A DNA stretch of 64,000 nucleotides, taken from Shigella phage Sf16. Location of the stretch: sequence record MF158043. One strand, given 5' to 3'. The notes beneath the pieces were generated by a model. That model was not told where the DNA came from and did no database searches. It saw nothing but the letters and a program-made list of their open reading frames with translations. Below, piece after piece: positions 17,218 to 17,293 of this stretch (its first letter is position 1; every line of letters starts with the position of its first letter). A program made the translations under genes and the position numbers.

Positions 17218-17293
17218 GGAAGTGTAGCAGAATGGTGATGCGGCAGACTTTTAATCTGACAGGCGATGGGTTCGAATCCCTCCACTTCTACCA
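17218..17293 (+). tRNA. tRNA-Lys (UUU), atypical T-stem
   Basis: Acceptor GGAAGTG/CACTTCT; loop CTTTTAA; T-stem has A.C and U.U mismatches. Confidence 0.55.

Follow-up and report, generated by a model that had tools for sequence, protein, structure and literature searches.

A probable single-pyrimidine bulge in the T-stem of paired tRNA-Lys genes from a FelixO1-type phage

Several bacterial defence nucleases act on the transfer RNA-Lys with the anticodon UUU—PrrC, AriB of the PARIS system, the Schlafen nuclease RorSlfn5 and P2-OLD, for which it is a lesser substrate—and this makes the escape of phage tRNA-Lys variants from such enzymes an active question. AriB cuts within U36AAUC|A41, and its cleavage is abolished by U39A, substantially reduced by A41C and also reduced by U16C (PMC12409363). 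A model of AriB places contacts at U16-U17, and the enzyme reportedly needs further, unmapped contacts outside the anticodon stem-loop. RorSlfn5 cleaves the anticodon arm. For P2-OLD, the determinants of resistance lie in the anticodon arm and swaps of the T-arm have a minor effect; the resistance of a phage tRNA-Thr to this enzyme needs two changes, a stem-shortening U43A and an altered CNG motif (PMC12445682). When 245 coliphage tRNAs were screened for suppression of AriB, tRNA-Lys(UUU) genes were exclusively enriched (PMC12445682). That 245-member library (Supplementary Table S2 of PMC12445682) may contain GGAAGTGTAGCAGAATGGTGATGCGGCAGACTTTTAATCTGACAGGCGATGGGTTCGAATCCCTCCACTTCTACCA.

Phage T5 presents a described parallel to the locus studied here. 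Like the tRNA-Lys(UUU) considered below (hereafter Lys-UUU), the T5 tRNA-Lys(UUU) differs from the host tRNA and is encoded in a large tRNA array with interspersed HNH endonuclease genes (PMC11464382, PMC12409363). The T5 tRNA, which neutralises PARIS and is the one phage tRNA-Lys shown to resist it, nonetheless keeps a host-like architecture with a canonical T-stem, ACAGG/CCUGU, whereas the T-stem of Lys-UUU is best read as bulged. In T5, PARIS resistance maps to U39A, A41C and U16C (PMC12409363), whereas Lys-UUU retains U39 and U16, carries U in place of A41, opposes G27 to A43 and lacks position 17. A bulged T-stem was considered as a feature common to PARIS-resistant tRNAs and rejected, the T5 T-stem being canonical. 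The P2-OLD-resistant phage tRNA-Thr (PMC12445682) resembles Lys-UUU in having lost the 27-43 pair, through U43A there and through A43 opposite G27 here, but is a different isoacceptor. Phage tRNAs with mutated anticodon loops have also been described (van den Berg et al., PMC10264068); Lys-UUU differs from these in that its loop, CUUUUAA, is unchanged from that of the host (PMC12482277), whose sequence was confirmed in our E. coli search. A last comparison concerns elongation factor EF-Tu, affinity for which is set by the T-stem pairs 49-65, 50-64 and 51-63 (PMC3239215). The Staphylococcus cell-wall tRNA-Gly, a weak EF-Tu binder, is irregular in this same region, but through weak base-pair combinations instead of a bulge, and it has a documented role outside translation (PMC3239215, PMC7826273).

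The window examined here, meaning the whole stretch of 64,000 nucleotides, includes a 5.2-kb tRNA region that matched 355 phage records in a sequence search, the best being Citrobacter phage KMM2 and Shigella phages ESh19 and Sf13-Sf19 at 97-98% identity. Its tRNA array is 90-98% identical to those of Citrobacter, Shigella and Escherichia Ounavirinae phages and covers nearly all amino acids. By these matches the window is assigned to an Ounavirinae myophage of the FelixO1/Moogle type (Mooglevirus/Felixounavirus), and FelixO1-type phages are widely used for typing and therapy. The features on which the analysis turns are as follows.

16042-21116, plus strand: tRNA array of 25 genes, plus a tRNA-Tyr missed by ARAGORN, with both Lys genes inside (ARAGORN, Rfam).
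17218-17293, plus strand: tRNA-Lys(UUU), 76 nt, CCA encoded, G1.U72, A73, anticodon at 17250-17252 (ARAGORN, ttt; Infernal).
17243-17259, plus strand: anticodon arm of Lys-UUU (Infernal non-canonical-pair flag; loop comparison, PMC12482277; AriB site, PMC12409363).
17265-17282, plus strand: T-arm of Lys-UUU, with G17265-C17282, A17266-U17281, bulged U17267, GGG 17268-17270 paired with CCC 17278-17280, and loop UUCGAAU (Infernal, covariation).
18927-19002, plus strand: tRNA-Lys(CUU), hereafter Lys-CUU, 76 nt, CCA encoded, G1.U72, A73, anticodon at 18959-18961 (ARAGORN, ctt; Infernal).
18974-18991, plus strand: T-arm of Lys-CUU, with G18974-C18991, A18975-U18990, bulged U18976, GGG 18977-18979 paired with CCC 18987-18989, and loop UUCAAUU (Infernal, covariation).

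The window also encodes a Ro60-like DUF2828 protein at 14461-15876, just upstream of the tRNA array, and contains a weak YrlA-like Rfam match (21.6 bits vs 69) away from the Lys tRNA genes.

Both Lys genes are members of the tRNA family, scoring 54.4 bits (Lys-UUU) and 56.9 bits (Lys-CUU) against Rfam RF00005, for which the gathering score is 29, as full-length matches to model positions 1-71, and both were called independently by ARAGORN. An earlier note on this DNA, which drew attention to the pair, placed the first gene correctly at 17218-17293 but ended the second at 18995 instead of 19002 (ARAGORN), cutting off the acceptor 3' strand and CCA of Lys-CUU. E. coli LysRS recognizes anticodon bases U35 and U36, with U34, and the discriminator A73. 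As read from the sequence, these identity elements, a UUU or CUU anticodon together with A73, are present in both genes, and both window tRNAs are predicted to be lysine acceptors; the wobble base of Lys-CUU is C34, unlike in the host. Enterobacterial hosts have no tRNA-Lys(CUU) isoacceptor (PMC12482277).

The two tRNAs have in common a T-arm of the form CGAUGGG-UUCRAWU-CCCUCCAC in RNA, written CGATGGG-TTC(G/A)A(A/T)T-CCCTCCAC in the genes, and are identical at 20 of its 22 positions. In the standard register the T-stem reads AUGGG/CCCUC, with A49.C65 and U50.U64 opposed and a 6-nt variable loop before the stem; two outer non-pairs of this kind occur only in these two of the 25 array tRNAs. 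The A.C and U.U mismatches reported in the earlier note are therefore visible in that register and peculiar to this pair, but they depend on the register chosen, and a bulge is the better-supported description. When aligned by Infernal to RF00005, both genes show the T-stem u as an insertion, with the G-C, A-U and GGG/CCC pairs formed and zero non-canonical flags in the T-stem; the uninterrupted 5-bp T-stem that is typical of RF00005, although not required by it, is absent, one nucleotide being inserted in the 5' strand. Related phage tRNA-Lys genes (Yersinia phage P778 Lys-UUU, Pectobacterium phage Arno18 Lys-CUU and those on four other viral contigs) are 75 nt long and have a continuous 5-bp T-stem that starts with the homologous G, from which it follows that the 1-nt insertion in the window's clade is derived.

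Covariation beyond the clade favors the same register. A scan of IMG/VR for x-A-Y-GGG-TTCRANT-CCC-T-y, confined to unique tRNAs called by ARAGORN and with the Felix clade excluded (n=65), returned x=G in 43 of the 45 phage tRNAs with y=C; where y was A or G, C stood at x in 16 cases, U in 3 cases and A in 1 case. Position 48 of tRNA is normally a pyrimidine, and a scan with y=R alone was for that reason judged confounded; addition of the y=C scan removed the confound. In total, x and y can pair in 62 of 65 independent phage tRNAs, with a Fisher p=8e-15 for their association. Within the clade the G-C and A-U pairs beside the bulge are invariant, so that the evidence for these two pairs is drawn from homology and other tRNAs, while the bulged base itself varies between U and C in both paralogues, against an unchanged opposite strand, in SUSP1, EcSzw_1, Sf13, Michonne, the related locus L035 and Bas63. 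Folding energy alone leaves the register unsettled, because the bulge register is better by only 0.6 kcal/mol in a nearest-neighbour calculation and the minimum-free-energy fold of Lys-UUU does not form a cloverleaf in the T region. Given the Infernal alignment, the canonical relatives, the covariation and the U/C switching, the best reading of the T-arm is a stem of five regular pairs from which a single pyrimidine bulges out. In essence, it is the common GAGGG/CCCUC stem, found also in the Ile and Gly tRNAs of the window's own array, to which a pyrimidine has been added directly behind the A.

The bacterial counterpart is different. The E. coli tRNA-Lys sequence served as host query, and every one of the 5426 complete genomes matched it at no less than 99% identity (5428 of 5429 records; 100% among the matches listed), with a median of 6 copies. 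Its T-stem is the canonical GCAGG/CCUGC, so that the prospect, raised in the earlier note, of a host tRNA-Lys with the same T-stem falls away. A search of E. coli genomes with the phage tRNA gave zero matches at E<=1, and a host origin of the phage T-arm was rejected on that ground.

The Lys-UUU and Lys-CUU genes are 82% identical, the closest pair in an array whose all-pairs median is 63%, which bears out the proposal that they are paralogues. The accompanying description of nearly identical 3' halves fits the T-arm, but the likeness extends well into the 5' part, where 34 of 42 positions match as against 28 of 34 in the 3' part. Their relatives form a short-D-loop lineage of phage tRNA-Lys, represented by Lys-UUU of Yersinia phage vB_YenM_P778, Lys-CUU of Arno18 and IMG/VR contigs L006, L009, L017 and L033, which share with the window genes the D-arm UAGCARAAUGG..UGC and the same type of anticodon arm; over the 5' half, the Lys-CUU genes of Arno18 and the window are 97% identical. 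Unlike the window genes, these relatives are 75 nt long with a continuous 5-bp T-stem, and positions 27 and 43 pair in them (by a Watson-Crick pair in the three that were checked, P778, Arno18 and L006), whereas in the window's clade the T-stem is longer by one nucleotide and the 27.43 pair is weakened.

How the pair arose is suggested by its distribution. Yersinia and Pectobacterium Ounavirinae carry one Lys tRNA of the short-D-loop type and another that is host-like; in the FelixO1/Moogle/Susp clade both Lys tRNAs are of the short-D-loop type and both are bulged, which implies that the lineage either was duplicated with a change of anticodon or displaced the host-like copy. Among the 107 unique matches listed, no Felix-clade Lys tRNA without the extra T-stem nucleotide was found. 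At the Lys-UUU locus of IMGVR_UViG_3300045988_004180 (L021) lies a chimera in which the acceptor stem of the UUU gene is joined to D, T and anticodon (CUU) arms derived from the CUU gene, such that this genome has two CUU genes and zero UUU genes. The chimera is direct evidence of gene conversion between the Lys paralogues. Conservation in both copies, as invoked in the earlier note, thus does not amount to two independent observations, and the two bulged copies in the window, being paralogues, are not independent events.

The argument from conservation against random decay nevertheless stands on other evidence. Mean identity across 37 related loci ranks Lys-CUU 1st (0.997) and Lys-UUU 4th (0.990) of the 25 array tRNAs, others of which fall to 0.74, and phage records at no less than 99% identity number 193 for Lys-UUU and 221 for Lys-CUU, FelixO1 and Bas63 included. 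Changes in the acceptor stem are compensated (A3-U70 to G-C, A4-U69 to G-C, G1.U72 to G-C or A-U), giving the variants GGAAGUG/CACUUCU, GGGAGUG/CACUCCU and GGGGGUG/CACUCCC in addition to A1-U72. Neither gene shows the fast divergence and uncompensated stem changes of a pseudogene. Both genes are under selection, and in the FelixO1 clade the bulge has probably been fixed in both under strong purifying selection. By sequence match, moreover, the genes are already known ones. Both annotated tRNA-Lys genes of FelixO1 (NC_005282: Felix01t007, Felix01t010) are identical to the window's and occupy the same array position, as do those of Bas63/JohannRWettstein, where Lys-UUU (bas63_0139) is identical and Lys-CUU (bas63_0147) differs only at the bulged base. 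The FelixO1 and Bas63 records and the Sf14 tRNA paper (PMC12482277) carry no comment on the T-arm oddity.

The bulge is not confined to this pair. In a sample of 760 phage tRNAs that was not chosen by T-arm structure, 89% have a canonical T-stem and 4 (~0.5%) a bulged T-stem of this type. On viral contigs no fewer than 20 further isoacceptor types have the bulged T-arm, which is accordingly not a Lys-specific device. On bacterial or MAG contigs it is found in Thr-UGU of four Dehalococcoidales genomes and Lys-UUU of three Planctomycetia, and also in Collinsella at tmRNA-like 3' ends; in that scan, which is uninformative on pairing because G and C were forced at the flanking positions, 88 of 120 matches were not ARAGORN tRNAs, the Collinsella matches that resemble tmRNA 3' ends being among them. 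A literature search for bulged T-stems in phage tRNAs found nothing relevant. The bulged T-stem is thus a rare but recurrent tRNA variant, a small structural observation for which we found no published description. Conservation of the whole sequence, bulge included, exceeds what a tolerated variant needs and leaves room for an added function; even so, we consider it unlikely that the x-A-Y-GGG/CCC-U-y arrangement, with a single-pyrimidine bulge and x paired with y, is a selected structural module and not a tolerated accident.

Our preferred reading, to which we assign a probability of roughly 0.6, is that the Lys pair are ordinary, predicted functional decoding tRNAs of an Ounavirinae phage, of one phage-type lineage and kept alike by gene conversion. 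It builds on the observed gene structure, bulge register, derived state of the bulge, conservation and gene conversion. Both genes would descend from a single phage tRNA-Lys ancestor with a short, 7-nt D-loop (GCARAAUGG), by duplication and a U34/C34 anticodon switch, with gene conversion thereafter keeping the pair alike. Insertion of a pyrimidine on the 5' side of the T-stem would have taken place in the FelixO1/Moogle/Susp clade, where the five T-stem pairs could still form and the extra base bulge out, holding the acceptor/T helix at its normal 12 pairs. The tRNAs would presumably be transcribed with the array, processed at their ends, charged by host LysRS, as retention of U35/U36 and A73 suggests, and used on the ribosome. 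Against this reading counts the place of the bulge, among the T-stem pairs that tune EF-Tu affinity, which together with the G1.U72 wobble might impair delivery by EF-Tu.

Within such a scheme the two tRNAs may serve different ends. Lys-CUU would read AAG directly, a codon that the host reads only by wobble of its UUU tRNA and that the phage uses heavily: 44.6% of the Lys codons in the window, as counted in 40 long ORFs, are AAG, and in Sf14, which is 98% identical, the median AAG RSCU is 0.778, compared with 0.462 in a host that lacks a CUU tRNA (PMC12482277). Lys-UUU may supplement or back up the host tRNA-Lys(UUU), a favourite target of defence nucleases. Knockout data for Bas63 in supplementary file 3 of the PhageMaP preprint (10.1101/2024.10.10.617714), taken for two of its four hosts and variable between replicates, fit this division. 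On S17 and MG1655 the fitness values were +0.66/+0.85/+0.81 and +0.70/+0.86/+0.75 for loss of Lys-UUU (g139), and -0.04/+0.09/-0.08 and +0.14/+0.10/-0.82 for loss of Lys-CUU (g147), which has the lowest median among the 19 tRNA genes scored on S17 in that file. In these data Lys-UUU is dispensable on two laboratory hosts and Lys-CUU is the lowest or near-lowest scoring tRNA, values that match a real decoding contribution by Lys-CUU and a redundant or conditional role for Lys-UUU.

The best-surviving alternative, which is compatible with a decoding role and which we hold to be possible, albeit with less than even odds, is that these are nuclease-resistant back-up tRNAs that would owe their resistance to the anticodon and D arms. 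Lys-UUU has the anticodon of the tRNA that AriB, PrrC and RorSlfn5 target. Its outermost anticodon pair, G27 (17243) opposite A43 (17259), is flagged by Infernal as non-canonical and shortens the stem to 4 bp, and its 3' strand reads UAAUC|U, with U where the host has A41; for comparison, A41C is the published mutant that substantially inhibits AriB, and U43A is one of the two changes behind OLD resistance (PMC12445682). Of the other mapped determinants U39 and U16 are kept, and the D-loop is without position 17, in a region, U16-U17, that AriB contacts in the model. The two other PARIS targets, Thr-UGU (UAAGC|A) and Asn-GUU (UAACC|G), are likewise encoded in the array, both changed at position 39. 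The exclusive enrichment of tRNA-Lys(UUU) genes from the coliphage library, the dispensability of Lys-UUU on defence-free laboratory hosts, as would be expected of a conditional gene, and the fact that Felixounavirus phages mostly escape the tRNA-cutting retron Eco2 would all be in keeping with such a role.

Several features pull the other way. The anticodon loop is that of the host, and for that reason PrrC, or another enzyme that reads the loop, would be expected to recognise Lys-UUU all the same; U39 and C40 are present in both tRNAs; and Lys-CUU retains the complete AriB site UAAUC|A (U39, C40, A41) and, being unable to read AAA, could not substitute for a destroyed UUU tRNA. Since the array spans nearly all amino acids, the presence of PARIS-target isoacceptors within it is unspecific. 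We found no test of Felixounavirus or Bas63 against PARIS or PrrC in the literature, and the PhageMaP main text is silent on both. On general grounds nuclease evasion by Lys-UUU is plausible, and the T-stem adds no support for it.

That the T-stem bulge or mismatch is itself the resistance determinant, blocking PrrC, AriB or a similar enzyme, as the earlier note had envisaged, now seems quite unlikely. The idea draws on the absence of the feature from host tRNA-Lys, on its presence and extreme conservation in both phage genes, on the standing of tRNA-Lys(UUU) as a target of these enzymes, RorSlfn5 and, less so, P2-OLD, and on the contacts that AriB reportedly makes at unmapped places outside the anticodon stem-loop. 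Yet the same T-arm is found in the other phage isoacceptor types and bacterial or MAG tRNAs described above, a spread that deprives it of any value as a demonstration of host nuclease evasion, and the PARIS-resistant T5 tRNA-Lys manages with ACAGG/CCUGU. For AriB the mapped sites are U39, A41 and U16; for OLD they lie in the anticodon arm, and T-arm swaps matter little. Yersinia and Pectobacterium Ounavirinae have a canonical T-stem in the same tRNA lineage.

Less probable still is a non-translational role, in which the Lys tRNAs would act as poor EF-Tu binders that serve as ligands or decoys, perhaps for the upstream Ro60-like DUF2828 protein. The bulge falls within the three EF-Tu-tuning pairs, 49-65, 50-64 and 51-63, and with the G1.U72 wobble in both tRNAs delivery by EF-Tu could be weakened; the authors of PhageMaP, moreover, suggest that gp130 may have Y-RNA-like partners among the annotated Bas63 'tRNAs' (10.1101/2024.10.10.617714). 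The link to the Ro60-like protein is weakened by Yersinia phage P778, which encodes this protein upstream as well yet has Lys tRNAs with canonical T-stems, and the sole YrlA-like Rfam match is both weak and located elsewhere. Both tRNAs still have a full cloverleaf, a Lys anticodon, A73 and a gene-encoded CCA, and the bulged arm also occurs in tRNAs that are conserved in several bacterial lineages, among them the Thr-UGU of Dehalococcoidales. As for decaying pseudogenes with T-stem defects as mutational damage, the 'inconsistent' tRNAscan-SE isotype calls for both tRNAs in Sf14 (PMC12482277), the helices weakened at G1.U72, 27.43 and the T-stem, and the costless Lys-UUU knockout on laboratory hosts count for very little beside Rfam scores at nearly twice the gathering threshold, compensated acceptor stems in two of the array's most conserved genes and the lowest tRNA fitness on S17 for the Lys-CUU knockout, so that this explanation merits next to no weight.

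The preferred reading, of ordinary decoding tRNAs, leaves the classification of these genes unchanged, while the analysis documents gene conversion between phage tRNA paralogues and corrects a pair of mismatches to a bulge. Standard annotation hides such bulged T-stems as a '6-nt variable loop plus mismatches'. If the bulge were a selected module, it might alter how the tRNA is handled by readers of the acceptor/T helix, such as EF-Tu, defence nucleases, phage proteins or the enzymes of tRNA processing and modification. For the question of nuclease escape in FelixO1-type phages, attention moves from the T-stem to the anticodon arm and the D-loop.

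Irregular stems in the tRNA array of Shigella phage Sf16 are not confined to the tRNA-Lys pair; other genes that show them include:

18843-18919, + strand, tRNA-Leu(UAG)
20114-20189, + strand, tRNA-Phe(GAA)
16597-16684, + strand, tRNA-Tyr(GUA), aligned across 86 nt to the annotated Bas63 tRNA-Tyr

The tRNA-Leu carries one T-stem mismatch, U50.U64 (GUGAG/CUCUC), common to the related phage EcSzw_1. In tRNA-Phe the irregularity lies at the junction of the T-stem and acceptor stem, where the 3' strand falls 1 nucleotide short of register and A7 clashes with A66; the Phe genes of FelixO1, SUSP1 and EcSzw_1 have the same junction. 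The tRNA-Tyr was not called by ARAGORN, and its Rfam score of 22.8 bits is under the threshold of 29. Relative to its Bas63 counterpart, the anticodon stem shows a compensated change (GGGGA/UCCCU to GGUGA/UCACU), and the T-stem contains a U.U (CCUAC to CCUUC).

Bulged T-stems also occur elsewhere. An unrelated viral array (L471, IMGVR_UViG_3300022661_001877) holds three tRNAs—Glu-UUC, Trp-CCA and Ile-UAU—each with a one-nucleotide bulge at the same T-stem position, in stems that differ from one another (GUUGGG/CCCAC, GAUGGG/CCCUC and GCUGAG/CUCGC, respectively). Among genome matches to the bulged T-arm motif, 88 of 120 are without a tRNA call, and of these the Collinsella group was examined: L049, L060, L063, L071 and other Collinsella or Coriobacteriaceae contigs share a conserved ...GCGUCCUGACGGGUUCGAAUCCCUCCUCCUCCGCC with this motif, which, from its sequence, looks like the 3' end of a tmRNA.

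Besides tRNA-Lys(UUU), the PARIS defence nuclease AriB targets two isoacceptors, each of which has a counterpart in the array:

16451-16527, tRNA-Asn(GUU)
19172-19247, tRNA-Thr(UGU)

At position 39, neither matches the host's UAAUC motif: tRNA-Asn, which has G27.A43 as well, reads UAACC|G, and tRNA-Thr reads UAAGC|A.

The array additionally contains tRNA-like elements and matches:

18406-18487, + strand, tRNA-like element, its stems, T-arm and 3' GCCA read from the sequence
16948-17022, + strand, Rfam tRNA match (30 bits, threshold 29)
17468-17655 and 17572-17709, + strand, sub-threshold Rfam matches to permuted tmRNA and alpha-tmRNA

The first combines an acceptor-like stem of 6-7 bp, a T-arm (GGGG-UUCGAAU-CCUC) and a 9-nt loop, CCUCCAAAA, that is closed by a 5-bp stem and includes a Trp-like CCA; tRNA-Trp is otherwise absent from the array. 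Neither ARAGORN nor Rfam (E<=1) called this element. The match at 16948-17022, also without an ARAGORN call, folds weakly (-7.9 kcal/mol), with the T-arm as its sole good arm, and is probably a tRNA remnant. The tmRNA-type matches occupy the spacer that follows tRNA-Ile. They are weak, at 34.7 bits for permuted tmRNA (threshold 47) and 20.3 bits for alpha-tmRNA (threshold 50), and are probably tRNA-derived fragments.

Two proteins are encoded beside and within the array:

14461-15876, + strand, DUF2828 and DUF7788 protein, 471 aa
17896-18243, + strand, 115-aa ORF

The former lies directly upstream of the tRNAs, and in relatives it carries the annotation "RNA-binding protein"; Yersinia phage P778 encodes this protein too. 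The homologue in Bas63, gp130, has been described as Ro60-like and as countering the Ppl defence system, and the authors of the PhageMaP study suggested that some array "tRNAs" might be its Y-RNA-like partners (preprint, 10.1101/2024.10.10.617714). The ORF has no Pfam match at E<=0.01, and its CxxC...CxxC...HH...CANCH motifs are HNH-like in appearance. In relatives, genes for HNH endonucleases sit elsewhere in the array, a distribution that fits reshuffling by homing endonucleases.

Exchange between tRNA genes is indicated at one Lys-UUU locus:

7722-7797 of L021 and 256-331 of L023, chimeric Lys gene of phage IMGVR_UViG_3300045988_004180

Here the acceptor stem comes from the UUU gene and the D, anticodon and T arms from the CUU gene, leaving this phage with two Lys-CUU genes and no Lys-UUU. 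By sequence comparison, this arrangement indicates gene conversion between tRNA paralogues.
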